64,000 nucleotides of DNA from a virus. Where the stretch lies: IMG/VR virus record IMGVR_UViG_3300037420_002497; one strand, written 5' to 3'. Below the pieces are notes generated by a model. It saw only the letters and a list, made by a program, of their open reading frames with translations, ran no database searches and was not told where the DNA came from. Shown here in pieces: positions 1,302 to 62,939 of the stretch; the stretch's first letter is position 1; each line of letters opens with the position of its first letter. Both the position numbers and the translations under genes were made by a program.

Positions 1302-1607
1302 TCAATAGCGTGGCATCTTGAATTCATCGGGTGAGCAGCTGCGCACAAGCTCATGCCCACCGTAATAGTCCTGCTCCAGAGTATTGAAAACATCAACCCA
1401 GAATCCCTTTTTGCCCAGCTGCGCCGCGAGCTGCGCGCCACGCATCCAGCTAGCACGGTGGAAAATGTTCACAGGGCGCAGCTTTTCCGCACTGTCATAC
1501 ACCATGCACAAAAACGGATTTTCAAGCTCATATGCCGTGACGTGGCTGTCATGTTCGCTTGCAGCTTCAAAGGCGATAAGGGTGAGCAGGGTTTGCATTT
1601 TCAACAC
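1302..1607 (-). CDS. hypothetical protein (101 aa), lower-GC island
   Basis: ORF lies in a lower-GC segment and has a protein-like composition; last gene of a 4-gene minus-strand operon. Confidence 0.5.
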   Translation of the reverse strand: MLKMQTLLTLIAFEAASEHDSHVTAYELENPFLCMVYDSAEKLRPVNIFHRASWMRGAQLAAQLGKKGFWVDVFNTLEQDYYGGHELVRSCSPDEFKMPRY

Positions 1608-1638
1608 TCCAGAATTGCGGGTTGATTGATTCGGCGCT

Positions 1639-2028
1639 TTAGATTATCCAAACCCCTGATGTTTCCTTGCCTTCGGGCGCATGGGTTCGGGCAAGGTCAA
1701 TCAAGCTCTGCAACTGCGCCCATTCGCTAGGCAAGGCGCGCGCGGATTCGGATTGAATTTGATATTCCAGCGAATACAGCAGCGCCAGCGCATAAGCGGC
1801 AGCTTCGGGCGAATAGTCAATATCCGGGTATGCCTGCCTTTCCTGCTCATACACAGCAGCGAATCCGCGCAGGGGTTCGGGCGCGCAGTTATAGGCGTGC
1901 GCCATGGTGTGATTGTTCAAGCGGCGCAGCTGCTGTGCCAGCTTCGCAGGGTTGTTTGTATAGGTGCGGGCATGGGCCCATGCGGCAATGGCTGCGATAT
2001 GACGGACAGAGCAAAGGACGCTAGACAT
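1639..2028 (-). CDS. hypothetical protein (129 aa), lower-GC island
   Basis: ORF collinear with its neighbours; protein-like composition. Confidence 0.5.
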   Translation of the reverse strand: MSSVLCSVRHIAAIAAWAHARTYTNNPAKLAQQLRRLNNHTMAHAYNCAPEPLRGFAAVYEQERQAYPDIDYSPEAAAYALALLYSLEYQIQSESARALPSEWAQLQSLIDLARTHAPEGKETSGVWII

Positions 2029-2158
2029 GATGGAAACTCCAGAGGGTCAAAACATCAGGTGGACCAGGGCGCGCACCATATCGGCGAGCTGCGCGCCAGT
2101 CAGGGAAAGCGCTGCAGAACGGACAACGGCAAGAATCGTCGTTTTCATGCTGTGCCCC

Positions 2159-3001
2159 TCATGCTGCGATCGCGAGGGGGACAACCCGACGGGGCGCGTC
2201 CACAACGAATCCGCTCATGTCCGTTCGTGCCTTGCCTTTTGCGTAAAGCGCCACCACCACCCCCGGGGGGTCATAAGGGCGCAAATCCGAATTATCCCCA
2301 GGGACGCAGGGCAAACCCAGGAAAGTATTCGGGATGTCCTGTTCATTGCGGAAAACAACGGCAATGCGCATGCCCTGCGCAATTGCCTGTTGCACGTACT
2401 TTTGATAAGCAGGCAAGCCAGAGTATGAAAATGTCAAATCGTAGTTTTTGGGGATGCTGCGCCGGTTCGGGAGCTTGGTGTAATCGTAGAAAATCACACC
2501 AGGAAAAACCGCCATGATATTGACGTATTCACCAGGGGCGCAGCCGATTTTCTTGGCCATGTTTTGATCTACAAACACAGGGACAAGCTCCCAGCGAATG
2601 TCACTTGTCCCATTCAAGCGAACCATGAAAACGAATCCTTTGCGCTGGGCATAACGCAGTCGGCGCGCAATCTCCAGTGCCAGCGCTTGCATGAATTCCC
2701 GGCGGAATCGAATGAAAAGCTGGGTCTTGTTCATGCGGGCATCATTGATGCCGCTCATATGTTCGGCGCGCCCTGCGGTAAACAAACAGGGCTCCAGACA
2801 ACCCGCAATTGCCGCCATGGCGCACAGGTTTTGCCCGGACAGGTTACCGGGCGCAAGGTACAGAATGGCCGTTTGCACCTGCTCGGTTTCACCCTTTTTG
2901 GTTTTCGCATTCTCTGTGCCCAGCAAATCCGAAGGCACGTACAAACCAGCTGCCGCAGCCTTTTGAGCGAAAGCCTTTGCGCAATAATTGAAGTTTTCCA
3001 T
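2159..3001 (-). CDS. hypothetical protein with Cys cluster (C-x7-C-x3-C), 280 aa
   Basis: longest ORF of the low-GC island; motif LCAMAAIAGCLEPC; family not recognised. Confidence 0.55.
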   Translation of the reverse strand: MENFNYCAKAFAQKAAAAGLYVPSDLLGTENAKTKKGETEQVQTAILYLAPGNLSGQNLCAMAAIAGCLEPCLFTAGRAEHMSGINDARMNKTQLFIRFRREFMQALALEIARRLRYAQRKGFVFMVRLNGTSDIRWELVPVFVDQNMAKKIGCAPGEYVNIMAVFPGVIFYDYTKLPNRRSIPKNYDLTFSYSGLPAYQKYVQQAIAQGMRIAVVFRNEQDIPNTFLGLPCVPGDNSDLRPYDPPGVVVALYAKGKARTDMSGFVVDAPRRVVPLAIAA

Positions 3002-3014
3002 TTTCGCCCCCTGG

Positions 3015-3212
3015 TTAGATACTGCGAATGCGCTGGATGTCCGCGCGGATAATGGCGCGGATAGAAATACGCTGCGAAATATCGGCGCAATTGCGCGCGT
3101 GAATCAATATCCGAAGGGCCGATTCAATATGGATTCGGTTCATTTTCTTCCCATTCCACAGGTAAACAGCTGCGGTCCCTGTCGCATCCCGCACTGCGCG
3201 GGGCGAAGCCAC
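3015..3212 (-). CDS. small hypothetical protein (65 aa)
   Basis: lies 13 nt upstream of the 280-aa gene on the same strand; purine-rich stretch precedes the ATG. Confidence 0.35.
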   Translation of the reverse strand: MASPRAVRDATGTAAVYLWNGKKMNRIHIESALRILIHARNCADISQRISIRAIIRADIQRIRSI

Positions 3213-3278: not shown

Positions 3279-3660
3279 TTAGGGGGGTGGACAGGGGGGG
3301 CGCGCCCAGTGCGAGCGTGCGAGCTGCGCCCGATTGCCTGCGACACAGGACCAGGGCGCACCAGGGCACCAGGGGCACAGCTGCACAGCTGGGCCCCTGG
3401 GCGCGCGCGCCACTCCACTAGTGACACAGGGCACAGGGCATGAGCTGCACCAGGGCACCAGCTGCACAGGACCAGGGGCACAGCTGCACAGCTGGGCCCC
3501 TGGGCGCGCGCCAGCTGGGCCCCTCATGCGGCGCAGCTGGTGCGACAGGGCGCGGCGCAGCTGGCGCGAGCTGCACCAGGGCACCAGAGCTGCGCCGCAG
3601 CTGGTGCACCAGGGCGCAGGACCAGGGCGCGCGGCGCACCAGGGGCGCAGCTGGGCCCAG
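3279..3660. repeat. second GC-rich degenerate repeat array (same module family as 60-1295)
   Basis: reiterated GCACCAGGG and CAGCTGGGCCC modules; six-frame ORFs. Confidence 0.6.
3518..3545. repeat. direct repeat copy B (GGGCCCCTCATGCGGCGCAGCTGGTGCG)
   Basis: matches 1266-1294. Confidence 0.5.
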
Positions 3661-8092: not shown

Positions 8093-9061
8093 ATGCAAGC
8101 CACCACCACCCGCACCGGCACCGCCTTCGACGACATGGACAGCGACCTGGGCGCGCTGGCCGGCGAGACCGCCGTCTACGTCCCGGGCGAAGGCCGCAAC
8201 CGTCGCGAGCCGCGCGAGGAGCTGGTGGCGCTGCACGAGGAGAAGTGCCCGAAGTGCCAGGGCTCGGGCCGCTTCCGGGGATTCACGGGCCGCCTGCTGG
8301 GCCAATGCTTCACTTGCCAGGGCGGCGGCAAGGTGTTCTTCAAGACCAGCGCCGTGCAGCGCGCCAAGTGCCGCGAGCAGGCCAAGGCGCGCGAGGAGCG
8401 CAAGCAGCAGGAGGCGCACAGCGCCTTCGCGGCCGAGCACCCGACCGAGTGGGCGTGGATGCGGGAGCGCGCCCTGCGCTGGGACTTCGCCCGCTCCATG
8501 GTCGAGGCGGTGGCCAAGTGGGGCCGCCTGACGGACGGCCAGCTGGCCGCCGTGCGCAAGTGCATCGCCAAGGATGCCGAGCGCGCCCAGCTGCGCGCCG
8601 CCGAGCAGCAGCAGCGCGCCGAGCTGGAGCGCACCGCCCAGGCGGTGAACATCGCCGCCGTCGAGGAAGCCTTCCAGCGCGCCAAGGACCGGCAGGTGAA
8701 TCGCCCGAAGCTGCGCCTTGCCGCCGATGCGGTGGAAGGCGCCGATGCGGCCGAGTACGTGTTCAGCCCGGCCGGCGAGAACAGCCGCAACGCCGGGTCC
8801 GTGTACGTCACCACCCGCCCGGAGCGCGGCGAGGAAGGGGTCTACCTGGGCAAGATCATGGGCGGCAAGTTCCTGAAGGTGCGCGACTGCAGCGCCGCCC
8901 AGGAAGCGCAGATCGTCGCCGTCGCATCCAACCCGGGCGAGGCCGCCAAGGCCTACGGGCAGCGCATCGGCGCCTGCAGCGTGTGCGGTCGCACCCTGAC
9001 GGACGGCACCAGCATCGACCTGGGCATCGGGCCGATTTGCGCAGAGCGCTACGGGTTCTAA
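8093..9061 (+). CDS. zinc-ribbon protein (322 aa) with C-terminal CxxCGRxLTDGTSIDLGIGPICA motif
   Basis: start placed by analogy with the other cassettes; motifs CPKCQGSG, CFTCQGGG and CSVCGR are present. Confidence 0.6.
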   Translation: MQATTTRTGTAFDDMDSDLGALAGETAVYVPGEGRNRREPREELVALHEEKCPKCQGSGRFRGFTGRLLGQCFTCQGGGKVFFKTSAVQRAKCREQAKAREERKQQEAHSAFAAEHPTEWAWMRERALRWDFARSMVEAVAKWGRLTDGQLAAVRKCIAKDAERAQLRAAEQQQRAELERTAQAVNIAAVEEAFQRAKDRQVNRPKLRLAADAVEGADAAEYVFSPAGENSRNAGSVYVTTRPERGEEGVYLGKIMGGKFLKVRDCSAAQEAQIVAVASNPGEAAKAYGQRIGACSVCGRTLTDGTSIDLGIGPICAERYGF

Positions 9062-23389: not shown

Positions 23390-23745
23390 GCCTCCCGCTT
23401 GCCGGCGCAGCTGGCGCAGTCGCCGCCGCAGCCGTCCTTGGACGGGCTGGCTTCCACGTAGATCACGCGCTCACCCAGGTTGCGGATCGGCATGCCGCCC
23501 ACCTCGCGCACGTCGCCCGGCAGGATGGCGGTGGGCGGCGGACGCGTGGGCCTGGGCGGCGCAGGCGGGTAGTGCGACGCCGGCCGGTTGCGCAGGCGCC
23601 CCTGGTGCTCGGCCCAGGCGTCGGCATTGCGGTTGTGGGCCCACTCGCTGGCGAGATAGAACACCACCAGCGCGACCATGGCCGCCAGGAACGGAAACCA
23701 GGGCGAGGTCCGCGCCCACTCGACGATCGGGTGCAGCCAGTCCAT
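23386..23745 (-). CDS. NfeD-like membrane protein with Cys-rich C-terminal tail (119 aa)
   Basis: N-terminal transmembrane segment; start overlaps the SPFH gene stop codon; pairing with SPFH is typical. Confidence 0.45.
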   Translation of the reverse strand: MDWLHPIVEWARTSPWFPFLAAMVALVVFYLASEWAHNRNADAWAEHQGRLRNRPASHYPPAPPRPTRPPPTAILPGDVREVGGMPIRNLGERVIYVEASPSKDGCGGDCASCAGKREA

Positions 23746-24665
23746 CAGCGCCCCACAGGCACACCCATGAACGGGATCGGCGCGCCGGCATACATCGACT
23801 GCGGCAGCGCGCCATCCCAGCGCTCGGCCTTCACCTTCTCGACCTCGATCTTGCGCAGTTCCAGCACGTCCTGGCTCTGGCGCAGCGCCTCGTTCTGGAT
23901 GCGCAGGGCATCGGCCTGGGCCTTGGCTGCCGTCATCACCGCATAGGCCGCACCGTCCGCCGTCCTGCGCGCCGCCTCGGCTTCGGCCTCGGCCACGGCG
24001 ACCTTCTCCTTCTGCTCGGCCTGCACGCGCAGCACCTTGTTCTCGGCCGCCTGCCGCAGCTCCTCCTCAGTCACCTTGCGGTTGATCGCCTCCATGTACT
24101 TCTCGTTGAAGGCGAAGTCCGTCATGTCGTTGCTGATGATGTGAGCACCGAACACGGCCACCTTGGCACCCAGGCGCTGCTTCACGTCCACCGACACCTC
24201 CTCGCGCCGCGTCACCAGCTCGGGCGCGGTGAAGCCGGCCGTGGCCGCCTTGAAGGCTTCCTGCGTCGCGGTGGCGACATAGGGGTCCAGGTCGCCGTCC
24301 TTGGAGAAGCGCTCATAGACCATCACCTCCTGGCCCGGCGTGATGGCGTAGCGAGGGACCATGCTGACCGTCACCGGCTGGCGGTCAGCAGTCGCACCCT
24401 GCGCGCCCTTCACCTCCACCGAGTTGGCGCGCATGTTCATCAGGTGCATCTGCTCCCAGGGGAACAGCAGCATGAAGCCCTCGTGATGAACGGCGGTGGT
24501 CTTGCCGCCGATGGTGATGATGGCGCGATGCCCGCTGGGCACCGAGCGCAACGGCCAGTAGGCCATGACGACGATCAGCGCCAGAAAGACGGCGAAGGCG
24601 CAAACCGATGCCTGGACAACCTTCAGCTGGCCGCGCTCGGTGAAGAAGACGTTCTTGATGTTCAT
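23745..24665 (-). CDS. SPFH/band-7 (prohibitin/HflKC-like) membrane protein (306 aa)
   Basis: N-terminal transmembrane segment, then a PHB-like domain, then an A/E/K-rich coiled-coil tail. Confidence 0.7.
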   Translation of the reverse strand: MNIKNVFFTERGQLKVVQASVCAFAVFLALIVVMAYWPLRSVPSGHRAIITIGGKTTAVHHEGFMLLFPWEQMHLMNMRANSVEVKGAQGATADRQPVTVSMVPRYAITPGQEVMVYERFSKDGDLDPYVATATQEAFKAATAGFTAPELVTRREEVSVDVKQRLGAKVAVFGAHIISNDMTDFAFNEKYMEAINRKVTEEELRQAAENKVLRVQAEQKEKVAVAEAEAEAARRTADGAAYAVMTAAKAQADALRIQNEALRQSQDVLELRKIEVEKVKAERWDGALPQSMYAGAPIPFMGVPVGR

Positions 24666-24688
24666 GGGGAGGACGGTTCTCCTGGAGA

Positions 24689-25091
24689 TCAGGCGCCCTG
24701 TTCGGGCGCGGGGGCATCCGGCAGCTCGGCCGCCGGCTGTTCGTTGGCGGCCTGGGCCTGGGCCTGGGCCGCAGCCTGCTGCTCCAGCACGTACTGCACG
24801 CCGTCGCGGAAGCCCGCGAGGTGCGCCTCGGTGAAGACCCAGGCGCCCCAGAGCGGCGCCACCTCGGTCTTGCCGTCCGGGAGGTGGCTCACGTAGTCGC
24901 CGCCGCGCGCCGTCTGAGCAGCGGAGTAGCCGATGGCAGCCTGCAAGTCGGGCGGCATCTTGGGCGTCTTGCTCTGGTCGCCGCCGGCCGCGATCAGCTG
25001 CTGCTTGTAGGCCGCCATCGCGTGCGAATAAAACGGGCGCGGGTCGCCGTTCTGGTGGACCTCGGTCCAGGGACGGGGGGTGATGTTCATG
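24689..25091 (-). CDS. hypothetical protein (134 aa)
   Basis: internal ATG chosen; upstream part of the ORF is a compositional artefact. Confidence 0.45.
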
Positions 25092-25140
25092 CTCAAAAAT
25101 CCAAACGCTCGGTTGTTAGCTCGTTCCCGCGCTGCGGGAT

Positions 25141-27539: not shown

Positions 27540-28463
27540 TCACGCTGCAGCTCCCGCCAGCCGGAAGATGGAGGACTGCGGCACCGGCATGCGCGGCGGC
27601 GGCTCCCGCCAGCGCCGGCCGCTGACGATGTCGCGCACCGTGACCGGCCCCAGCCCCGTGCGGGCCACGATCTCGGGGGCGGCCACGCCTTGCGCCTTGA
27701 GCAGGCGCACCTCGCGCGCCAGCTCCATGGTGCAGAAGCTGCGTTGGCGGCGCATCGTGTCGGCCCGCTTGGCGTTGGTCTCGGGGCGGCCCATGACGCC
27801 CTGCTGGTGCAGCCAGCTCATGTGCTCCGAGCGCGTCATCGCCTTGAGGTGGCGCAGGCACAGGCGGTTGCCGCAGGCCGGCGCGATCGTGAAGCCATCG
27901 GGGCTGCGCCCGTACATCTCGCGGTACACGCGGTTGCGCACGTCGATGTGCCCCTGCACCGGGCGGCCCCACTTGTTGGTCTCGCGCGTCCACAGCAGGC
28001 AGCGCCCGACGTGCCGGGCCAGCGTGGTGGGCGAGCTGTCGGAGCGCTCCACGCGCTCCCGCAGCCACACCTCCAGCCACTCGCGGCGCGCCTGGACGTG
28101 CGCGTCCTGCAGCGGCTCAAGCAGCGAATCCAGCCACTTCTGGCGCTTGGCGCGCTGCCCCGGGGTCTGCAGATCCAGCGCGGTGATGAGGCGCGGCTTG
28201 GCCTTGCTCTCGACCCGGGCCTGCTCGATCACCTCGGCCGCCTCGATGGCGGCGCTGAGGGCGGTCTTGGGCGTGGCCGGCTTGGCGGCGGCCGGGGCGG
28301 CGCAGCCCGGGCAGTGCCACCACGTCTTGTCCACGCGCTTCCAGCCGGGCCCTTCCAGGCGGGGCTGGTGGCACTTGTCGCACAGCCGGGTGAACAGCTG
28401 CGCGGGCGCGGAAAACGCGATCCGGCGCTCCGGGGCGCCTGTGGCGGATTCGTAGTTTCTCAT
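27540..28463 (-). CDS. HNH endonuclease-domain protein with N-terminal zinc finger and C-terminal HTH (307 aa)
   Basis: CGNRLCLRHL is an HNH_3-like motif; CDKCH...WHCPGC is a zinc finger. Confidence 0.55.
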   Translation of the reverse strand: MRNYESATGAPERRIAFSAPAQLFTRLCDKCHQPRLEGPGWKRVDKTWWHCPGCAAPAAAKPATPKTALSAAIEAAEVIEQARVESKAKPRLITALDLQTPGQRAKRQKWLDSLLEPLQDAHVQARREWLEVWLRERVERSDSSPTTLARHVGRCLLWTRETNKWGRPVQGHIDVRNRVYREMYGRSPDGFTIAPACGNRLCLRHLKAMTRSEHMSWLHQQGVMGRPETNAKRADTMRRQRSFCTMELAREVRLLKAQGVAAPEIVARTGLGPVTVRDIVSGRRWREPPPRMPVPQSSIFRLAGAAA

Positions 28464-29251
28464 CGGGTCTGGGGAGTCTTGGACCGGGCCTCGCGCAGCT
28501 CGCGCGCCTTGGCCGCCGCCTCGGCGCGCTGCTGGGGCGTCATCTCGTCGGCACGCAGGTACTGCTGGGTCCGGTCGGCATCACGGGAGGGGACGGTGGG
28601 GGCCGGGCCGGCGGGCAGCGAGCCCTGGTGCAGACCCTTGGCTTGCAGGGCGGCTTCTTCGCGCCGCTTGGTCACGATGGCCAGGGCGTAGGCAAAGCCC
28701 CGGCGGCGCTCGGCCGCCTCGCGGGCGGCGCCGACGAACTCCTCTTGCGTGGCGCCGGACTGCAGCAGCATCAGCAGCCCGGCATGCCCGGGGTTCACGT
28801 CCTGGCAGCCCACCTGCCGCATGGCCCGGCACACCAGACCGGCCTGGGTCGGCACCACGCGCTGGTCGCCCGTGACGGGGCTGTTGGACGGTCCAACAGG
28901 CGCGTCCGCCTCGGGCAGGCGGTGCTCGTCGAAGCGCGGGATGACGACGCCGCCACCGTCCGCGCGCAGCCAGTCAATGGCCACCAGCGCCTCGGCAAAC
29001 CCGGGGATGCCCGTCTTGCGGTCGATCTGGCGTGCCGGCAGATTCGGCAGCTGGCCCTGGCGCCCGTGCCGGCTCACCGCCGCCCAGAGCCAGTAGAGCC
29101 CGCCGATGACGTGCGCCTCGGCACAACCCGTGACCTCGCACAGGGCGGCCACGCGGGGGTCATCCCACAGGTTCGCGCGCATGAAGATCCCCGGGCCGCT
29201 CACGCCGACCCCCGCGCACGAAAGACCCGCTGCATGGAAAATTTCCCGCAA
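28460..29251 (-). CDS. hypothetical protein, possibly replication-associated (263 aa)
   Basis: second gene of the early operon after the Cro-like gene; basic C-terminal tail; contains one copy of the 17-bp palindrome. Confidence 0.4.
   Translation of the reverse strand: MREIFHAAGLSCAGVGVSGPGIFMRANLWDDPRVAALCEVTGCAEAHVIGGLYWLWAAVSRHGRQGQLPNLPARQIDRKTGIPGFAEALVAIDWLRADGGGVVIPRFDEHRLPEADAPVGPSNSPVTGDQRVVPTQAGLVCRAMRQVGCQDVNPGHAGLLMLLQSGATQEEFVGAAREAAERRRGFAYALAIVTKRREEAALQAKGLHQGSLPAGPAPTVPSRDADRTQQYLRADEMTPQQRAEAAAKARELREARSKTPQTR
28882..28898. promoter_or_regulatory. dispersed palindrome site 2 (TGTTGGACGGTCCAACA), inside a CDS
   Basis: perfect 8-1-8 palindrome. Confidence 0.5.
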
Positions 29252-29333
29252 GAACGTGTGACAAATTCACGACAAATGCGGCTTGCCCCTATTGCAGGGA
29301 GGGGTCGCCCAACGGGGCGATTGCGCGAAGCGA

Positions 29334-29347
29334 ACCAATGGCTAAAC
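29334..29347. promoter_or_regulatory. operator-like site O1 (ACCAATGGCTAAAC)
   Basis: related to O2, O3 and O4. Confidence 0.4.
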
Positions 29348-29383
29348 ATCAGGCTCATGGATGCAGGCACGCCGTTCGCTCCG

Positions 29384-29674
29384 TCACGCCGTTTGCGCGG
29401 TCTCCGCAGGGAGGCCGGGCGCCCCAGGACTGCCGATCAGCTCAGGCCAATGGATCGGCCAGTCGAGCGGGCGCAGCTTCCAGCGCGGCACCTGCCCGTT
29501 GGTTGCGCGCTCCACCTCGGCGCAGCGATACAGGGGAACGGCCTTCCACCCCTTTTCGTCGCGCTGCTTCTTCCACCGACTCACGACCACCGGGCTCACC
29601 CCCAGCTCGCGCGCAAGACGGGCTGCAAGGCCGCGCTCGGGCTGCATGAGGTACTGCCGGATGTCCATTTCCAT
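29384..29674 (-). CDS. YdaS/Cro-like HTH regulator (about 96 aa; a GTG at 29716 would give 110 aa)
   Basis: LARELGVSPVVVSRWKK...VPLYRCAEVERATNGQV...LRPLDW resembles YdaS/Cro-family proteins. Confidence 0.55.
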   Translation of the reverse strand: MEMDIRQYLMQPERGLAARLARELGVSPVVVSRWKKQRDEKGWKAVPLYRCAEVERATNGQVPRWKLRPLDWPIHWPELIGSPGAPGLPAETAQTA

Positions 29675-29685
29675 GGGCCAAAAGT

Positions 29686-29701
29686 TTAGCCGTTGGCTTA
29701 A
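29686..29701. promoter_or_regulatory. operator-like site O2 (TTAGCCGTTGGCTTAA)
   Basis: imperfect palindrome 12 nt upstream of the cro-like ATG. Confidence 0.45.
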
Positions 29702-29774
29702 CTTCCCCGAAGCCACGGGATTCGCTTCCCCGGCCCGTCAGCGATCCACTGGATACAAGTCCACTTGAATCAAG

Positions 29775-29787
29775 TAGCCAATGGCTA
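29775..29787. promoter_or_regulatory. operator-like site O3 (TAGCCAATGGCTA, perfect 13-bp palindrome)
   Basis: in the divergent intergenic region, 14 nt upstream of the repressor-like gene. Confidence 0.5.
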
Positions 29788-29800
29788 TCAAAATCGCGCC

Positions 29801-30316
29801 ATGAAAACTAGCGAAGAAATAAGGGTTGTTCGGCTCAAGCAGCTGATAGAGGAGTGCGGAGGTTCCGTGCAGGCGGTAGCCCACGCCATGGGACGGCCGA
29901 CCTCCCAAATCTGCAGCCTGCGCGACATGACCGTGCGGAAGGTGGGCTCCAAGGCCAAGGGAACCGAGAAGGAGCTGCCGCGTGTCATAGGGCCGGATCT
30001 GGCCCGCGAGTTTGAGGTACGGTTCGGCAAGCCCCGAGGCTGGATGGACAACGATCCCAGGCTCGTAGCGGGCGTCAACGACGAGCACACGGAAATCTGG
30101 CGCCAGATCGCGATGAAGCTGGCCAAGAAGTGCCGCGCCGAAGGCATCCTGGTGGATGCATCCAACTTCCTCGGGCTCGTGGACGACCTGACCGCCAAGC
30201 TGGAGGTCAGCGACGACGCCGCCGAGAAGGCCGCCGCCCTGTACGAGGAGTTCATGGGCATCTTCGCCCGGCGGCTGCTGCAGCCGAGCAACGGAGACGC
30301 TTCCGTTCTGCGGTAA
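29801..30316 (+). CDS. HTH repressor-like protein (171 aa)
   Basis: N-terminal HTH (SVQAVAHAMGRPTSQICSL); divergent from the cro-like gene; ATG chosen over an upstream TTG. Confidence 0.5.
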   Translation: MKTSEEIRVVRLKQLIEECGGSVQAVAHAMGRPTSQICSLRDMTVRKVGSKAKGTEKELPRVIGPDLAREFEVRFGKPRGWMDNDPRLVAGVNDEHTEIWRQIAMKLAKKCRAEGILVDASNFLGLVDDLTAKLEVSDDAAEKAAALYEEFMGIFARRLLQPSNGDASVLR

Positions 30317-30351
30317 AAGCTACCGGATTCTGTATTATCCGAAGGTAACCG

Positions 30352-30657
30352 GTGCTTAACGTTCGGCGCCGGACATCGGCCGATGGCCGTCACCGAAGGA
30401 TCACCGTGGGCGAGACGAAGAAGCAGCTGCGAGCCGAGGACATCGGCTCCAAGGTCGATCAACTCCTGGAGGGCATCGACCTCCGAGAGCTGCAAGGCGG
30501 GGGCGGCGACCCGGGCGGCGACTACCGCAGGGCGCCCGTCTTCGTCATCGTCGGGGACAACAACACGATCAATGTGCCCAGCGCCTGCGCCGGCTGCGCC
30601 AAGGCGCCCCGGGTCGTCGAGGTTCCGACCATCCAAGGGGTTGGACTGTCCAGCTAG
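30352..30657 (+). CDS. hypothetical protein (GTG 30352, or GTG 30409 with a GAAGGA RBS)
   Basis: TATTAT -10-like hexamer upstream; a terminator lies downstream. Confidence 0.3.
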   Translation: MLNVRRRTSADGRHRRITVGETKKQLRAEDIGSKVDQLLEGIDLRELQGGGGDPGGDYRRAPVFVIVGDNNTINVPSACAGCAKAPRVVEVPTIQGVGLSS

Positions 30658-30702
30658 GCAACCCCGCAACTGCGGGTCGCGGCCCTCCAGCCCCCCCCCA
30701 AA

Positions 30703-30727
30703 GGCCCGCTTCGGCGGGCTTTTTTGC
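30703..30727 (+). terminator. rho-independent terminator
   Basis: stem GCCCGCTTCGGCGGGC followed by TTTTTT. Confidence 0.65.
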
Positions 30728-30771
30728 GCCCCCCATGAATCCAAGGGATCGACATAAACCCCTGGATATGA

Positions 30772-30811
30772 ACCGTTGGCTATTGACACGGTTAATCCCA
30801 CAGCTACCATG
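30772..30811 (+). promoter_or_regulatory. operator-like site O4 (ACCGTTGGCTAT) overlapping a TTGACA -35 box
   Basis: TTGACA at 30783-30788, then about 17 nt, then TACCAT. Confidence 0.4.
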
Positions 30812-30840
30812 CGATCCCACAGCGTCAGCCATGACGCAGC

Positions 30841-31395
30841 ATGGAGGCACTGGTGGCAGACAGGGCGGAATTCCTCATCCAACGCGCCGAGGCGGCCGGG
30901 CAAGCTGCCCACGCGGCCGAGACCCGGCGCAGCGGAGGCAACAGCGCCCTGGCCGCACTGGCTCGCGCCTGGGCCGTCATCAACGCGCTGAAGGCCGCGC
31001 TGCGGCAGGTGTTCCTCGACCACGGCAGCCCGCACACGGCCTTCGCGCCCACGCAACCCGCCGAGCCGGCGCCCACCAGCCACGTCATCGACTCGACCAT
31101 GGGCGTCGGCGGCACGCCGGTGCGCATCGAGTACGACATCGACCGCGAGGGCGTCCCGTGCATCCTGGCGATCTGGTTCAACGACCAGCCGCCGTACCTC
31201 GGCGACCTGGAGGAAGCCTTCTCGGGCTGGCAGGTGCGCACCTGGAACGCCCAGGTCGAGATCGACGCGATGTGCCAGCTCCAGGCCCACGCCCAGGACG
31301 AGACGGCGCGCCCGGCCAAGAACCGCACGCACGTCACCCACAACCGGTTCCTGGATCGTCCCTACAGCAACGATCGGATCAAAGGGGGCGCGTGA
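30841..31395 (+). CDS. hypothetical protein (184 aa)
   Basis: ORF coupled (TGATG) to the next gene. Confidence 0.5.
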   Translation: MEALVADRAEFLIQRAEAAGQAAHAAETRRSGGNSALAALARAWAVINALKAALRQVFLDHGSPHTAFAPTQPAEPAPTSHVIDSTMGVGGTPVRIEYDIDREGVPCILAIWFNDQPPYLGDLEEAFSGWQVRTWNAQVEIDAMCQLQAHAQDETARPAKNRTHVTHNRFLDRPYSNDRIKGGA

Positions 31396-31976: not shown

Positions 31977-32618
31977 ATGATGACCGCAATCACCGCCGCC
32001 CAGCTGGGTGAGTTCGACTACAAGTTCCTGATCGACGCCTCCTTCTCCCAGGGAACGAAGGACTGTGCCGGCGGCAAGAAATCGCGCTGGGACTTCATGC
32101 AGGAAACCCTGCTGTCCACCTTCGCCGACATCGAGAAGTTCGACAGCGATGGCGTGGAAGTGCTCATCTACCAAGGCTCCCATGTGCATGAGCACAAGGG
32201 CGTGACCAGCGCGACCCTGCCGGGCATCCTGGCCAAGTACGAGCCTCGCAACAGCACGCCCACCGCCGAGGCACTGCGCAAGGTGCTGCCCGTGACCGCC
32301 GGCAGCAACGGCAAGAAGCTGTTCATCCAGTGCTGGACGGATGGCGTGCCCAACAGCAAGGAAGGCGTCGAGGACATCCTGATCGCCCAGGCCAGCGCCC
32401 AGAAGAACGACGAAGACTGCACGGTGCAGTTTGTCCAGGTGGGCTTCGATGAGGAGGCCGGCGACTGGCTGCTCAACGAGCTGGACAACGGCCTCAAGGC
32501 CAAGGCCAAGGCGCTGGGCTACGGGGAAATCTTCGACATCGTGGACGTGCGCACGATGAAGGATCTGGAAGCCTTCGCCAACCCGGTGGACATGATCGTC
32601 GCCGGCATCAACGACTGA
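31977..32618 (+). CDS. von Willebrand factor A (vWA) domain protein (213 aa)
   Basis: MIDAS-like DASFS and TDG motifs in a Rossmann-like arrangement. Confidence 0.65.
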   Translation: MMTAITAAQLGEFDYKFLIDASFSQGTKDCAGGKKSRWDFMQETLLSTFADIEKFDSDGVEVLIYQGSHVHEHKGVTSATLPGILAKYEPRNSTPTAEALRKVLPVTAGSNGKKLFIQCWTDGVPNSKEGVEDILIAQASAQKNDEDCTVQFVQVGFDEEAGDWLLNELDNGLKAKAKALGYGEIFDIVDVRTMKDLEAFANPVDMIVAGIND

Positions 32619-34032: not shown

Positions 34033-34163
34033 TGTTCAACGTCCAGCAACTGCTGGCCAAGGGCTCGATCGAGGGCCCTTGCCGGCCCCGTCGCCCCTCG
34101 CTGCGCGTGCTGCTGACGCTGGCCGCGCGCGCGCTGCTGCAGCGCCTGGAGGGCCGCCGGTGA
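34031..34163 (+). CDS. tiny basic protein (43 aa) bridging two genes
   Basis: TGATG overlap upstream and GTGA overlap downstream. Confidence 0.25.
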
Positions 34164-35260
34164 GCCTGTTCCAGCGGGCCGAGAACGCCCAGGCCTACGC
34201 CAAGATCGGCATCCTGGGCTTCACCGGCGACGGCAAGACGCACACCGCCTGCGTGATCGCGATCGGTCTGGTGCAGCTGCTGCGCGAGCGCAACATCGCC
34301 GCCGGCAGCCGCCCGGTGCTGTTCATCGACACCGAGCGCGGCAGCGACTGGATGAAGCCGCTGTTCGATGACGCCGGCATCGAGCTGTGGGTGTCGCGCA
34401 CGCGCAGCTTCGTTGACCTGCTCACCGCGATCGAGGAAGCCGTCAAGGCCGGCGCGGTGCTCATCATCGACAGCATCACGCACTTCTGGCGCGTGCTGTG
34501 CGACGAGTACATGCTGCGGCGCAACCGCCGCAACGGACTGGAGATCAGCGACTGGTCCTGGCTCAAGGCCAAGTGGGGCGAGTTCACCCGCGCGTTCCTC
34601 AATGCCGAGTGCCACATCATCATCTGCGGGCGCGCGGGCTACATCTACGACCGCTCGGAAGATGCCGATGGCCGCCAGCAGGTGCGCAAGACCGGCGTGC
34701 AGCTCAAAGCCGAGGGCGAGACCGGGCACGAGCCCAGCCTGCTGGTCCTGATGGAGCGCCAGGAGGGCCCGCCCGAGGAGTGGGGCGGCAAGCCGCGCAT
34801 CTGGCGCACCGCGACCATCCTGAAGGACCGCAGCCGCCAGATCGACGGCAAGACCTTCGACGACCCGGGCTTCGACGCCTTCCGCGCGCACATCGAGTGC
34901 CTGAACCTGGGCGGCACGGACGAGGGCATCGACTTCAGCCGCAACAACAGCGCCCTGTTCTCCGAGGACGGCACGCCGACGTGGCAGCGCGAGCGCCAGT
35001 GGAAAGACGTGGCCCTGGACGAGATCGACGCGTGCCTCGCCAAGCACTTCCCCGGCCAGGGCGCCGAGGCCAAGGCCAAGCGCATGGAGTTCCTGGAGAA
35101 GGCGCTGGACACCCGCAGCTGGGAGCGCGCCAAGACCCTGCCCTGGCTCGACATCGAGCGCGGGCGCAACTTTTTGTGGATCACGCTGGAGGGCAAGCCC
35201 TACAGCGTGGCTCCGGTGGTGCACCAGACGAATGAGGAGTTCGGCGACGTGCCCATGTGA
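34160..35260 (+). CDS. P-loop ATPase, AAA_24/Sak4-like core plus C-terminal extension (366 aa)
   Basis: Walker A GFTGDGKTHT; FIDTERG; Walker B VLIIDSITHF. Confidence 0.6.
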   Translation: MSLFQRAENAQAYAKIGILGFTGDGKTHTACVIAIGLVQLLRERNIAAGSRPVLFIDTERGSDWMKPLFDDAGIELWVSRTRSFVDLLTAIEEAVKAGAVLIIDSITHFWRVLCDEYMLRRNRRNGLEISDWSWLKAKWGEFTRAFLNAECHIIICGRAGYIYDRSEDADGRQQVRKTGVQLKAEGETGHEPSLLVLMERQEGPPEEWGGKPRIWRTATILKDRSRQIDGKTFDDPGFDAFRAHIECLNLGGTDEGIDFSRNNSALFSEDGTPTWQRERQWKDVALDEIDACLAKHFPGQGAEAKAKRMEFLEKALDTRSWERAKTLPWLDIERGRNFLWITLEGKPYSVAPVVHQTNEEFGDVPM

Positions 35261-47034: not shown

Positions 47035-47579
47035 CGCCCGAGCGCTTCAAGAGCCTGCTGGCCGGCATGACCGCCGTGGCCGCCAAGGTGCTCGGCGCCG
47101 TGCCGATCGCCGAGAGCTGGACCTCGGCCGAGATCATCGCGGAGCTGGTCCGCCAGGGGCAGACGATCCGGGACCGCGTGGTGGTCGAGGGCTGCCTGGG
47201 CAAGCTGCGCGAAGCCGGCCTCGTGCGCGAAGCCGAGCCACAGAAATTTCGCCGCGTGAAGGTGCGCGAGCGCGCGACCGTGAAGAAGGAGGCGCCCGAG
47301 GTGGCGCCGAAGGAGCAAGAGCAGATGATTCCCGCGACCATCGTCCCCGGGTCGGCCGAGACGCTGTCCCACGCCCTGAGCCCCAGGAAGCCCGGCCACC
47401 TGGAGCGCCTGGGCGCGATTTCCGCCGACCTGCGCCAGCGGGCCCAGAGCCTGATCCAGCTGGCCGACAGCATCGACGCCGCCGCGCTCGCCACCGAGGA
47501 CGAGATCGCCGCGCTGGGCGCCGACAGCCGCAAGCTGCGCCAGCTGCAGGCCCTGCTCACCGGCGCCGCCACCGTCTGA
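47031..47579 (+). CDS. hypothetical protein (182 aa)
   Basis: ATGA overlap with the upstream gene. Confidence 0.5.
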   Translation: MTPERFKSLLAGMTAVAAKVLGAVPIAESWTSAEIIAELVRQGQTIRDRVVVEGCLGKLREAGLVREAEPQKFRRVKVRERATVKKEAPEVAPKEQEQMIPATIVPGSAETLSHALSPRKPGHLERLGAISADLRQRAQSLIQLADSIDAAALATEDEIAALGADSRKLRQLQALLTGAATV

Positions 47580-47598
47580 CCACACCAAGGAGCCACCC

Positions 47599-48828
<1,230 letters not shown>

Positions 48829-59233: not shown

Positions 59234-59246
59234 CCCGGGGGCCATG

Positions 59247-59290
59247 GTTCACATTTAGTTCACTCTCGGTTCATTCTGTGTTCTATACTA
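59247..59290 (+). repeat. iteron-like cluster B: four GTTC repeats at 11-bp spacing ending in TGTTCTATACT
   Basis: GTTCAC at 59247, GTTCAC at 59258, GTTCAT at 59269 and GTTCTA at 59280; last 20 nt nearly identical to cluster A. Confidence 0.65.
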
Positions 59291-59333
59291 GGTGCGACGG
59301 CAGCACGGGGCTGCCTCCACCGGAGAACCGCAG

Positions 59334-59588: not shown

Positions 59589-59620
59589 ACTACCAACAAA
59601 GGGAGATCCCCATGCCCCGG

Positions 59621-60019
59621 AGCAAAGCGCTCCTCACCCAAGAGCAGTTCGATGCCGCCATCCGCCAGGGTGGCGTCATGAAGGACCACAACATCGAGCT
59701 GGCGCGCCAGATCCTGGTGCTGGGCGTGCCGAACAACGCTGCGGCCAAGGCGGCCGACGTGCTGCCATCCCAGGCCAGCACGATCGTCAAGCGGGTGCTG
59801 CAGTACCACCAGACCGCCCTGACCCTGAAGAAGACCGCCGCGCAGTTCATGGCCGAGAAGCCGCCGCGTGAGCAGGTGATCGAGGCGCTGCGCCCCGAGC
59901 TGCTGAAGCTGCACAAGGCCAAGTACACGGTCGAGCAGCTGATCGAGTTCCTGGCGGCCAATGACGTGCACGCGAACCGCAAGGAAGTCCTCGCGATCAT
60001 CGAAGGGAGCAACCCGTGA
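59621..60019 (+). CDS. hypothetical protein upstream of parA (132 aa; an alternative ATG lies at 59585)
   Basis: AAGGGAG RBS lies 6 nt upstream. Confidence 0.45.
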   Translation, partial: SKALLTQEQFDAAIRQGGVMKDHNIELARQILVLGVPNNAAAKAADVLPSQASTIVKRVLQYHQTALTLKKTAAQFMAEKPPREQVIEALRPELLKLHKAKYTVEQLIEFLAANDVHANRKEVLAIIEGSNP

Positions 60020-60846
60020 GCAAGACCCTCAAGAGCCTGATGCTGGTCGCCCAGAAGGGTGGCGTGGGCAAGACCGCGATCGCCACGCTGCTGGCGCACT
60101 ACCTCGCCCTGCTGCGCGGCAAGCGCGTGCTGGTGATCAACCTGGACCACCAGAAGAACCTCGTGCGCCCGCTGTCGCAATCCGGCAAGGTCACGATGTC
60201 GGCCATCACCAGCGACAAGCTGCTGACCGACCCGGCCGCCGATGTCGAGGCCGCGCCCTACGTGCTGGTGCCCGGCGACAAGGACGCACTGGAGAGCCTG
60301 GAGCGCCAGCCCGACCGGCACAACGCCTTCGCCGGCAACTTCCGTGCGTTCCTCAAGCGCATGGAAGGCCGCTTCGACGTGGTGATCGTGGACACCAACC
60401 CGAACCCGGACATCCGCGTCCTGGCCGCGATGGTCAGCATCGACTACGTGCTGGCGCCGATCCAGCTCAACCAGGAGAGCATCGACGGCATCGCCGACCT
60501 GTTCAACGGCAAGCGCGTGGGGATCGGCCGCATCCGCGCCACGCTCAACAAGCAGCTCAAGTTCCTGGGCATGCTGCCCAACCTCGTGAAGCCGGTGCCG
60601 TTCCAGCGCACGAACCTGGAGAAGCTGCTGGCCGTGCCCGAGTACCGGGCGCAACTGATGTCGATGGTCGATGACCCGACCGAGATCAGCCAGCTGGCCC
60701 GCATCCCCGACCGCACCGTGATCGCCGAGATCCAGGCCAGCGGCAAGGTGCTGTGGGAGGTGAAGGACAAGACCGCCGCGCGCGACGCCTGGGCCGAGAT
60801 CAAGCCGGTCATGGACCGCATCGCGCATCTCATGGGCGTGCAGTGA
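60016..60846 (+). CDS. parA: ParA/MinD-family partition ATPase (276 aa)
   Basis: deviant Walker A AQKGGVGKTAIA; GTGA overlap with the upstream gene. Confidence 0.75.
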   Translation: MSKTLKSLMLVAQKGGVGKTAIATLLAHYLALLRGKRVLVINLDHQKNLVRPLSQSGKVTMSAITSDKLLTDPAADVEAAPYVLVPGDKDALESLERQPDRHNAFAGNFRAFLKRMEGRFDVVIVDTNPNPDIRVLAAMVSIDYVLAPIQLNQESIDGIADLFNGKRVGIGRIRATLNKQLKFLGMLPNLVKPVPFQRTNLEKLLAVPEYRAQLMSMVDDPTEISQLARIPDRTVIAEIQASGKVLWEVKDKTAARDAWAEIKPVMDRIAHLMGVQ

Positions 60847-60884
60847 TTCGCCACCACTGACGCCCCCACCGACAGGAGCCACAC

Positions 60885-61916
60885 ATGAGCATCGACCTTT
60901 CGCAATCCCTGGACCTGGGCGACCTGAGCGCCACCGCCGCCACCGGCGAGCCGCTGAAGCTGTGGGCCGCCACCATCCGGCCCAGCCGCTGGGCCAACCG
61001 CCACGAGCTGAGCTTCCTGAGCCCGGAGTTCAACGCCCTGAAGGAGGAGATCAAGAACGCGGGCGGCAACGTCCAGCCGATCAAGGTGCGCCCGCTGGCG
61101 CAGCCCGAGGACGGCGTGGAGTACGAGGTGGTGTTCGGCCACCGCCGCCACCGCGCCTGCCTGGAGCTGGGCATCGAGGTGGCCGCCGTGGTCGAGGCCG
61201 TGGACGACCAGCATCTGTGGGCGCAGATGGAGCGCGAGAACCGCGCCCGCGAGCCGCTGTCGGCCTACGAGCAGGGGACGATGTACCAGCGCGCGATGGA
61301 CGAAGGGCTGTTCCCGTCCATCCAGGCGCTGGCCAAGGCGATCGGCCGCAGCGCGGGCGACATCAGCAAGGCCATCTCCATCGCCCGGCTCCCGCCCGAG
61401 GTGGTGCAGGCCTTCGGCTCACCCCAGGACATCGGGTTCCGCGACGCCAAGCCGCTGAAGGACGCGGTGGAGGCGGCGCCCGAGGCGGTGGCCCAGGCCG
61501 CCCGCGCGCTGGCCGCCGTGCCCCAGGCGCTGCCGCCGAAGGTGGTGGTGCAGCGGCTCGCCGCCGCCGCCGGCATGGCCGATGACGACCAGAACGAAGC
61601 CGAGGAGGAGCCGGCCGAGGCGGCTGTTGGACGGTCCAACAAGGCCAAGGCAGCGCCCGCGCCGAGCCCGGCAGCGCCAGCTGTTGGGCCGTCCAACAAG
61701 CCCGCGCCGGCCCCGAAGGCGGCCCCGGTTGCGCACCTGCGGGTGGTGGTCGAGGTCGGCGAGGAGCTGATGGAGCTGGTCACCGACTGCCGCCCGAAGC
61801 GGGGCCTGATCCCGGTGCGGCCAGTGGCCAGCGATGAGGCGCCGCAGTACCTGCCGGCGGGCAAGGTGCGCATCGTCCGTGCCGAGGCCCAGGCGCCCCG
61901 CACGTTTACGGGTTAA
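60885..61916 (+). CDS. parB: ParB-like partition protein (343 aa)
   Basis: N-terminal ParB/Srx-like motif VVFGHRRHRACLELG; follows parA; CAGGAGCCACACATG start context. Confidence 0.65.
   Translation: MSIDLSQSLDLGDLSATAATGEPLKLWAATIRPSRWANRHELSFLSPEFNALKEEIKNAGGNVQPIKVRPLAQPEDGVEYEVVFGHRRHRACLELGIEVAAVVEAVDDQHLWAQMERENRAREPLSAYEQGTMYQRAMDEGLFPSIQALAKAIGRSAGDISKAISIARLPPEVVQAFGSPQDIGFRDAKPLKDAVEAAPEAVAQAARALAAVPQALPPKVVVQRLAAAAGMADDDQNEAEEEPAEAAVGRSNKAKAAPAPSPAAPAVGPSNKPAPAPKAAPVAHLRVVVEVGEELMELVTDCRPKRGLIPVRPVASDEAPQYLPAGKVRIVRAEAQAPRTFTG
61625..61641. promoter_or_regulatory. dispersed palindrome site 5 (TGTTGGACGGTCCAACA), inside the parB 3' region
   Basis: perfect palindrome. Confidence 0.5.
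61682..61698. promoter_or_regulatory. dispersed palindrome site 6 (TGTTGGGCCGTCCAACA), inside the parB 3' region
   Basis: one mismatch. Confidence 0.45.
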
Positions 61917-62467: not shown

Positions 62468-62612
62468 AGCCCGCACCCCGTCCTTCTGATCGCGGTATTC
62501 CCGCCGTGCAGACACGCGTGCGAGAAGGAATGGACGTTAGCCAATGGTTAAGGCAGGATAGGCTTCCCGCCGGTTGATGTATTTCAGCTGGCGCGAACCC
62601 CAGGAGCCACAC

Positions 62613-62939
62613 ATGCAAGTCACCATCAACATCCCCGATGCCGTCCTGCGGGAAGCCATCGAAGCCCAAGTCGGCGCTGCCGTCGCCAAGATCACCAGCG
62701 AGGTGATCCACGCCAAGGCCAACGAGATCATCGACAAGAAGATGGAGCGCTTCGACCCGGAGGCGATCGCCAGGGCCTTCGTCACTTCCCAGATGACCGA
62801 AACGGTGCGAGCCCAGATGTCCACCGAGCTGCTGGCCCTGCTCGGCCCGCAGGGCTACCAGCGCCGCCAAAAGGTGGAGGAGCTGGTGATGCAGGTCGCG
62901 AAGCAGCTCCTGCGCGGCGAGGTCGGAGGCAAGGCATGA
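62613..62939 (+). CDS. hypothetical protein (108 aa)
   Basis: CAGGAGCCACACATG start context. Confidence 0.5.
   Translation: MQVTINIPDAVLREAIEAQVGAAVAKITSEVIHAKANEIIDKKMERFDPEAIARAFVTSQMTETVRAQMSTELLALLGPQGYQRRQKVEELVMQVAKQLLRGEVGGKA

Follow-up and report, generated by a model that had tools for sequence, protein, structure and literature searches.

Among described immunity regions, the one closest to the locus treated here belongs to CP-933P, a cryptic prophage of E. coli O157:H7, in which PaaR2 and YdaS both footprint the same repeats over the back-to-back promoters PRM and PR; the repeats recur at the downstream promoter PL, the repressor gene is followed by cargo genes, and the switch is bistable (PMC8630535). 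In this study, we have analysed a 64,000-nucleotide stretch of viral DNA (IMG/VR virus record IMGVR_UViG_3300037420_002497), called the window throughout, and in particular its positions 29,334 to 30,811, where a repressor gene and a cro/YdaS-like gene are transcribed away from each other. PaaR2/YdaS is the closest characterised system to this switch, which is a further example of a known design. As in CP-933P and the related RacR/YdaS/YdaT system of Rac, a repressor without an S24 domain is divergent from a YdaS-type Cro; here too, intergenic palindromes lie over PRM and PR and again at a downstream PL (these promoters being predicted in the window), and the cargo position comes after the repressor gene. 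The two loci differ in several respects. The operators of CP-933P are 18-bp repeats with the consensus GTTTAGTAA, whereas those of the window are 13-bp sites of the form TAGCC-N3-GGCTA; the window has no YdaT/CII-like gene after cro but a replication-initiator-like gene instead; and the cargo is a small open reading frame (ORF) rather than a toxin-antitoxin pair. The two repressors are only remotely related, as judged from a weak match (E 0.004) between our repressor family profile and 7nkv, a fragment described as 'Phage repressor protein CI'.

The textbook comparison is the lambda switch, with CI and Cro, the right operators OR1-3 and the left operators (OL). The window shares the lambda order (cro operon, OR, repressor, cargo, terminator, OL/PL, recombination genes), the three OR sites, the placing of operators over PR, PRM and PL and, by prediction, a leaderless repressor mRNA. 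Unlike lambda, it has no RecA-cleavable S24 domain, its operators measure 13 rather than 17 bp, its OL sites number two rather than three, and its cro-like gene is also apparently leaderless. Divergent repressor and Cro genes, three intergenic operators over predicted promoters and a second operator set are all found in the window, and we are reasonably confident that the locus is a lambda-type switch and serves as the immunity region of a genome of temperate-phage type, on the plan of lambda OR/OL. Its elements are as follows.

29332-29344: O1, GAACCAATGGCTA, in the gap of about 200 bp between the stop codon of the cro-like gene (29384) and the next leftward gene; its half-sites are those of O4 (GAACC...GGCTA)
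29384-29674, minus strand: cro/YdaS-like gene, 96 amino acids (the Joint Genome Institute (JGI) gene call agrees), first gene of the leftward operon
29687-29699: O2, TAGCCGTTGGCTT, 12 nt 5' of the cro-like ATG, counterpart of OR1
29710-29722: middle site, AAGCCACGGGATT, degenerate, in the OR2 position 23 bp from O2, identified from a direct repeat and the spacing in relatives
29775-29787: O3, TAGCCAATGGCTA, perfect palindrome 13 nt 5' of the repressor ATG (29801), counterpart of OR3
29801-30316, plus strand: repressor gene, 171 amino acids, with an N-terminal helix-turn-helix domain of about 90 residues and a helical C-terminal domain
30406-30657, plus strand: small ORF of 83 amino acids with a GTG start (JGI gene call), between the repressor gene and the terminator
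30700-30725, plus strand: intrinsic terminator, a GGCCCGC-TTCG-GCGGGC hairpin followed by T6, identified from sequence and RNA fold
30770-30810, plus strand: rightward early promoter, made up of O4/OL1, the -35 box TTGACA (30783-30788), OL2 and the -10 box TACCAT (30805-30810)
30770-30782: O4, also OL1, GAACCGTTGGCTA, directly before TTGACA
30794-30806: OL2, AATCCCACAGCTA, degenerate, overlapping the -10 box TACCAT

The motif is enriched in the window, and most clearly so at the switch. The core CCRWTGGCT has 9 matches in the 64 kb (3.25 expected) and CCNNNGGCTA has 11 (4.77 expected); five of the latter, representing four sites, fall inside the 1.45 kb at 29335-30782, where about 0.1 would be expected. 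Allowing at most one mismatch to the two half-sites, three places in the window qualify (O2, O3 and a distal site at 62538) against 0.77 expected. A looser cluster test (at most two mismatches, four sites within 1.5 kb) fails to reach significance when taken alone, as 46 of 300 simulated sequences, or 15%, reach it, and this is the one observation that would suit a motif that is nothing more than a chance repeat in AT-richer non-coding DNA, with no regulatory role. The exact-core counts speak against such a reading and the comparison with relatives described below effectively refutes it, the positions of the sites relative to promoters and start codons being kept in about 20 relatives together with locus-specific co-variation; we give it next to no credence. 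The main weight for the sites comes from the placing of all of them in non-coding DNA and from their conservation in relatives. A first-pass annotation made from the sequence had proposed four operators, and its O1-O4 are where it put them, outside coding DNA, with O3 a perfect palindrome between the divergent genes and O1 between the cro-like gene and the next gene to the left. It had O2 just upstream of the cro-like ATG, correctly, although that codon is at 29674 and not at 29677, and it rightly associated O4 with the TTGACA of the rightward promoter, although the site adjoins the -35 box rather than overlapping it. The count of four was too low: the degenerate sites at 29710-29722 and 30794-30806 could be recognised because the layout of the window is that of its relatives, which would bring the region to at least six operator sites.

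These relatives were collected by pattern scans guided by the repressor alignment, which yielded 27 loci from Burkholderiales genomes and IMG/VR; most are Burkholderiales prophages, and phage phiE125 is among them. In some 20 distinct loci, a Cro/YdaS-like gene and the repressor gene point away from each other across an intergenic region of about 85-90 bp that contains three 13-bp sites of the form TAGCx-N3-xGCTA (about -74, -50 and -26 relative to the repressor start codon), the middle site being spaced by 23-25 bp. Fifteen loci have a second pair of sites, 22-34 bp apart (mostly 24-25), located 0.4-3.4 kb downstream of the repressor start and always in the same order: OL1, TTGACA, OL2 and a TAAnnT -10 box. 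We estimate that chance would supply about 0.003 such pairs per locus. The closest relative, L005, whose DNA-binding domain is 57% identical to that of the window repressor, has the sites TAGCCCATGGCTT, CAGCCCTGGGCCA and TAGCCGCAGGCTA placed as in the window with respect to the two start codons, and between it and the window the half-sites are kept while the central triplets are not. Three JGI contigs with an identical repressor (L001-L003) are about 99% identical to the window across the region and for that reason carry no footprinting power. Searches of phage and plasmid collections found little: megablast of 27-37 kb against phage and plasmid collections returned nothing, tblastn of the window repressor and of a Bordetella-type relative against phages and plasmids also returned nothing, and among the tblastn queries only the relative L019 reached isolated phages. 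A search of 28.8-31.2 kb against Rfam gave nothing above the gathering score.

The half-sites differ among loci (TAGCC, TAGCG, TAGCT, TAGCA, TCCCC and CTACA), but within any one locus the OR-like and OL-like half-sites are identical. Across loci, the half-site follows the putative recognition helices of both the repressor and the Cro-like protein, S-Q-I/L going with TAGCx, T-R-I/V-L with TCCCC and Y-Q-I-L with CTACA. The comparison provides strong evidence that the local protein pair would bind these sites, with one specificity serving both the divergent region and the downstream promoter. The proposal of the first-pass annotation that a single repressor controls both the leftward operon and the rightward operon beginning at 30841 is in this way strongly backed by comparison, through the 15 relatives with matching downstream half-sites, and we keep it as a prediction. 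In phiE125, gp52 is a member of this repressor family (39% identity over 95 residues to a relative of the window protein); a divergent cro-like ORF, not annotated, lies upstream of it, as do three sites of TAGCG type. Repressors of the gp52 type also occur in related Burkholderia, Pseudomonas and Ralstonia phages. Unlike the element studied here, phiE125 is an ordinary integrating siphovirus; its half-site differs from that of the window, and its gp52 is annotated as 'transcriptional repressor' by similarity only.

Both proteins of the switch are what the first-pass annotation took them for. The Cro-like protein matches PF15943 (YdaS) at 45.1 bits (gathering cut-off 30, E 8.9e-12) and phrog_35, and among solved structures in the PDB it matches the Cro proteins 8co2 (E 2.3e-8) and 8c7k (E 4.3e-8), entries named 'antirepressor protein Cro' that we take to come from the CP-933P system. 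Residues 1-87 of the repressor match phrog_12107 ('transcriptional repressor') at 1.8e-13; the protein has no Pfam match at E <=0.01, and no S24 peptidase domain was found in it or in any of the 81 ORFs of the window. Few homologs are present in the databases, and they have only the N-terminal half in common. As a single-sequence query against the PDB it returned only noise and family profiles were needed, the profile matching the N-terminal domain of the SPC32H Rep protein (5d50_A) at 1.5e-5 over residues 1-90. An AlphaFold model, built on a 5-member alignment, is all-helical with four N-terminal and three C-terminal helices, and the top three Foldseek hits of this model are 5d50 entries, with a probability of 0.95-1.0 but an E-value of about 0.1. 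Rep of the Salmonella phage SPC32H (PDB 5D50, a Rep-Ant complex) is thus the best solved-structure match of the DNA-binding domain and, like the window repressor, has no cleavage domain; it is disassembled and inactivated by its antirepressor and binds DNA as a tetramer (PMC9638917; PMC7380047). The C-terminal domains of the two proteins are not demonstrably related.

The promoters of the divergent genes have an arrangement that the relatives share. In the window, the -10-like box TAAACT of the leftward promoter (29683-29688, minus strand) is overlapped by O2 and ends 8 nt from the cro-like ATG, and the repressor promoter carries O3 in its spacer, adjoining the -10-like box CAAAAT (29789-29794), which is followed after 6 nt by the repressor ATG. 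Among relatives, the repressor ATG is preceded at 6-7 nt by an nnnAAT box in 19 of 20 loci, and no Shine-Dalgarno sequence is present. A Shine-Dalgarno sequence is also missing from nearly all cro-like genes, most of which show a -10-like box within about 6-9 nt of the start codon. On the cro strand of about 10 relatives, TTGACA or TTGACT is separated by about 17 nt from a -10 box of the TAATCT type, which shares bases with the cro-proximal operator. Because the -10 boxes stand so close to the ATG codons and Shine-Dalgarno sequences are missing, both divergent genes are predicted to be leaderless, and back-to-back leaderless promoters seem to be a conserved design of this family.

Working from the positions of the sites, we infer their binding, the order in which they would be occupied and the bistability that would follow. 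The 171-amino-acid repressor would bind the 13-bp TAGCC-N3-GGCTA sites as a symmetric oligomer, and the Cro-like protein probably recognises them too, on this model with the opposite order of affinity at O2 and O3. Repressor bound at O2, either alone or together with the middle site, would turn off the leftward operon with its cro-like and replication genes. O3, filled by surplus repressor or by the Cro-like protein, would turn off repressor synthesis, and repressor at O4 and OL2 would silence the rightward early operon and its recombination-type genes. Both divergent mRNAs would begin leaderless, to judge from the spacing of 6-8 nt between -10 box and ATG.

The intergenic region of the window is longer than those of its relatives. 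It holds about 41 bp of extra DNA, within 29723-29774, which moves the middle site to 65 bp from O3 as against about 24 bp in relatives. This insertion contains an imperfect palindrome, ACTGGATACAAGT (29748-29760), and a perfect 13-bp palindrome, ACTTGAATCAAGT (29763-29775), the latter providing the TTGAAT -35 box (29765-29770) of the repressor promoter; the insertion region (29723-29775) also shows tandem 15-bp repeats, CCACTGGATACAAGT and CCACTTGAATCAAGT, the second of which holds the perfect palindrome and adjoins O3. With the OR2-like site 65 bp from OR3 and a -35 box of the promoter's own, activation from OR2 in the manner of lambda is doubtful. The presence of this palindrome and of its imperfect copy at 29748-29775, next to O3 and over the repressor -35 box, could be taken to mean that the two kinds of site are divided between the two proteins, TAGCC-N3-GGCTA serving one of them (Cro, for example) and ACTTGA-N-TCAAGT serving the repressor, or the reverse. 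We find this improbable. No other copy of the ACTTGA-type motif is found in the window at two or fewer mismatches, the shorter intergenic regions of relatives have the TAGCx sites as their sole repeated element, and in both proteins the recognition-helix region varies in step with the TAGCx half-site. Besides, in CP-933P both proteins footprint the same repeats (PMC8630535).

Our preferred interpretation, one lambda-type switch with operators shared by repressor and Cro-like protein, has to accommodate several observations that count against it. The middle site and OL2 are degenerate, with 3 mismatches each, and the leftward promoter has only a poor match, TTCGGG, in place of a -35 box, a trait shared with the nearest relatives L005, L007 and L008 but not with the roughly ten others that have TTGACA or TTGACT. 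When 29200-30900 was scanned with the promoter consensus, the rightward promoter was the sole promoter-like match. The AlphaFold model of the repressor is of modest confidence (pLDDT 66), and the link to SPC32H Rep is limited to the N-terminal domain. As a second, unrelated palindrome adjoins O3, another regulator may act there. O1 has no counterpart in the relatives compared. Finally, in the window, which is about half of the element, no LexA box (CTGT-N8-ACAG) and no member of an antirepressor family was found, so far as this half goes a difference from the SPC32H system. Concerning induction, the missing cleavage domain and the Rep-like N-terminal domain make an antirepressor or other protein partner a more likely trigger than RecA-stimulated self-cleavage, and we suggest induction by a protein partner only tentatively.

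To the left, the operon that the switch would control continues beyond the cro-like gene with two further genes.

28460-29182: replication-initiator-like gene (phrog_2509), leftward operon, next after the cro-like gene
27540-28463: HNH endonuclease gene, leftward operon, after the replication-initiator-like gene

Two alternative gene models were rejected here. A GTG at 29716 was ruled out as the start of the cro-like gene, the alignment of relatives beginning at the ATG, and an antisense ORF at 29357-29689, which mirrors the cro-like gene from O1 to O2, was discarded because its third codon positions coincide with position 1 of cro, the common shadow-frame pattern of high-GC DNA, and because its product is rich in Arg, Pro and Ala. 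The surroundings of the cro-like gene are themselves symmetrical, with an inverted repeat of 27 nt (81%) at 29335-29361 and 29670-29696, CCAAYGGCTAAAC..GGC.CATGGA, such that O1, with the TAAACA and ATGGA that follow it, mirrors O2, the -10 box and the start of cro. O1 may be an auxiliary operator for looping, part of a repressor-controlled antisense promoter directed into the cro-like gene, or a recombination scar.

On the other side, the intrinsic terminator at 30700-30725 is predicted to stop the repressor transcript ahead of the rightward promoter. The 83-amino-acid ORF in between, which has no Pfam and no PHROG match, probably shares a transcript with the repressor and occupies the place that rex has in lambda. 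It is a candidate cargo gene expressed in lysogens, and the same slot measures 0 to 3 kb in relatives. The rightward promoter, TTGACA-16-TACCAT, is predicted to be strong and matches 10 of 12 consensus positions, and its degenerate OL2 resembles the AATCC-type OL2 of L012 and L023. It precedes an operon in which we recognise the following genes.

30841-31395, plus strand: first gene of the rightward operon
31977-32618: vWA-like ORF
34079-35260: Sak4-like AAA_24 gene

Unlike the divergent genes, the first rightward gene has a GGAGG motif, and since this motif comes after the ATG of the 30841 gene, GTG 30853 is an alternative start. The vWA label that the first-pass annotation gave to 31977-32618 finds no Pfam or PDB sequence support; it goes back to a DxSxS-like motif read by eye.

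Operator-like sites are not confined to this core. The distal site at 62538-62550, TAGCCAATGGTTA, has one mismatch to O3 and lies in a 230-bp gap that runs from the terminator of the parB region and a ParB-type palindrome to a gene starting at 62613. Another, GAACCACCGGCTC, is found just left of window position 1 (L036, about 8986-8998), upstream of the HNH-terminase operon, and is kept in both strains; there, the sister strain has three more operator-like sites and a TCAAGA box (L039:6960-7005). At the end of the HNH gene (L036:10020), the half-sites of TAGCCAACGGCTC are kept and its centre differs between strains. We regard O1, the 62538 site and those ahead of the terminase operon as likely auxiliary operators, which could serve looping or, as in P1 and N15, both phage-plasmids, the regulation of scattered operons. 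C1 of P1, CB of N15 and SetR/CroS of SXT/R391 are master repressors of extrachromosomal or conjugative elements with operators at several dispersed operons, and SetR/CroS is a lambda-like switch over conjugative transfer. We liken the window switch to these systems by description, the dispersed sites here being predictions.

The distal site is close to genes of plasmid type in the right part of the window, and a 17-bp palindrome is spread more widely.

59606-61916: IncP-like central control block, made up of a KorA-like gene, ParA (60016-60846) and ParB/KorB-like (60885-61916, with a SopB-type helix-turn-helix domain)
11745, 28882, 37461, 59447, 61625, 61682 and 62451: copies of the 17-bp palindrome TGTTGGACGGTCCAACA, with an extra copy at L039:14111

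The KorA-like protein reaches 26.5 bits against PF16509, just under the cut-off of 26.7, and in the promoter region ahead of the block (59240-59295), four direct repeats of GTTCA, spaced by about 10 bp, precede TATACT. With a KorA-like gene beside ParA and ParB genes, an operator-like site at 62538 in the same region and a half-site, GGCTAAAC, that we regard as loosely similar to the IncP KorA operator, the sites of the switch might be thought to be operators of these KorA-like or ParB/KorB-like regulators (59.6-61.9 kb). This is very improbable, as the sites accompany the repressor/Cro pair in about 20 loci, with a specificity that shifts with both proteins, and the ParB/KorB-like protein has a different candidate of its own in the 17-bp palindrome, whose 7 copies in the window compare with 0.12 expected. 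Some of these copies lie within phage-type genes such as the replication-initiator-like gene and others in the par region, and a further copy is in the head protease gene; all are probably ParB/KorB-type sites.

The switch, which we continue to regard as of lambda type, is carried by an element of mixed composition. The window is found on JGI contig Ga0395902_0000093 (122,796 bp) with two different offsets, which imply a 127-bp terminal overlap and hence a circle of about 122.7 kb, and the contig of a second sample (123,000 bp) is opened at a different point. To the left of the window lie genes for HNH, TerL, portal, a ClpP-type protease, an HK97-type capsid, a head-tail adaptor and a tape measure of 1823 amino acids; to its right, a NikA-like gene and a PF03432 relaxase accompany a complete VirB1-B11/VirD4 set, and an independent SRA assembly also joins conjugation genes to the right end of the window. 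VirB4 is 84% identical to its counterpart in A. australica, and Azohydromonas and related Burkholderiales are candidate hosts. Gene content of the carrier was read from L124 (contig 57-74 kb), L125, L036, L039, L118 and L123, and two scans of metagenome collections to extend along the contig returned nothing. No integrase appears in any Pfam result for window proteins, ORFs at the tail-conjugation junction or JGI tables; Pfam gave nothing at all for the junction ORFs, where small or divergent recombinases could still be present. The carrier is not a simple prophage. It may be a phage-conjugative hybrid, a conjugative plasmid with a prophage or, less likely, a recurrent mis-assembly.

With such a carrier, it can be asked whether the switch still governs lysis and lysogeny. 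It could be a domesticated remnant, comparable to RacR/YdaS, that regulates replication or transfer genes of a conjugative plasmid that has captured phage DNA. The complete conjugation system and KorA/ParAB of the carrier would fit this. So would the window's lack of recognised integrase, lysis and antirepressor genes, and the degenerate state of the middle site, of OL2 and of the -35 box of the leftward promoter. Yet the head, adaptor and tape-measure genes are intact long ORFs, the architecture of the switch is complete and identical in strain variants, and operator-like sites lie upstream of the terminase operon; on balance, we think a remnant unlikely. A bolder proposal is that the switch is the master control of a combined tailed temperate phage and self-transmissible conjugative plasmid, in which case a CI/Cro-type decision would be made between plasmid maintenance with conjugation and lytic development. 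The two kinds of site do cross between the halves of the element, with ParB/KorB-type palindromes in phage-type genes and operator-like sites in the par region and before the terminase operon, and we put this proposal forward as a speculative one that we ourselves hold to be doubtful.

Some other features of the window may be recorded here. A lower-GC island at 1302-3103, with about 58-61% GC at codon positions 1 and 3, holds three leftward genes, including one for a GP88-family protein, and is bordered by degenerate tandem repeats of 17-37 bp (202-739 and 3434-3564). RNA-repair and accessory ORFs are found across the window, including an RtcB ligase (47455-48828, 6e-131), a HAD_SAK_2 domain protein, DHFR, DUF932, a Band_7 protein (23745-25115) and a MarR-type regulator.

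In conclusion, the switch itself is ordinary and adds little to what is known, being an immunity region of the lambda/CP-933P type in an uncharacterised Burkholderiales repressor family; the unusual part is its carrier, in which tailed-phage and conjugation genes share one circle. For the family, the comparison yields an operator code for about 20 prophages, with 13-bp TAGCx-N3-xGCTA sites, three plus two per locus, half-sites that co-vary with the recognition helices, and leaderless starts. As Pfam has no model for the repressor, this code could seed studies of specificity and the annotation of prophages. If the 122.7-kb circle is one functional replicon, it would bring together virion genes and a full conjugation system, and the operator map would then offer a way to ask which transfer route the repressor restrains.

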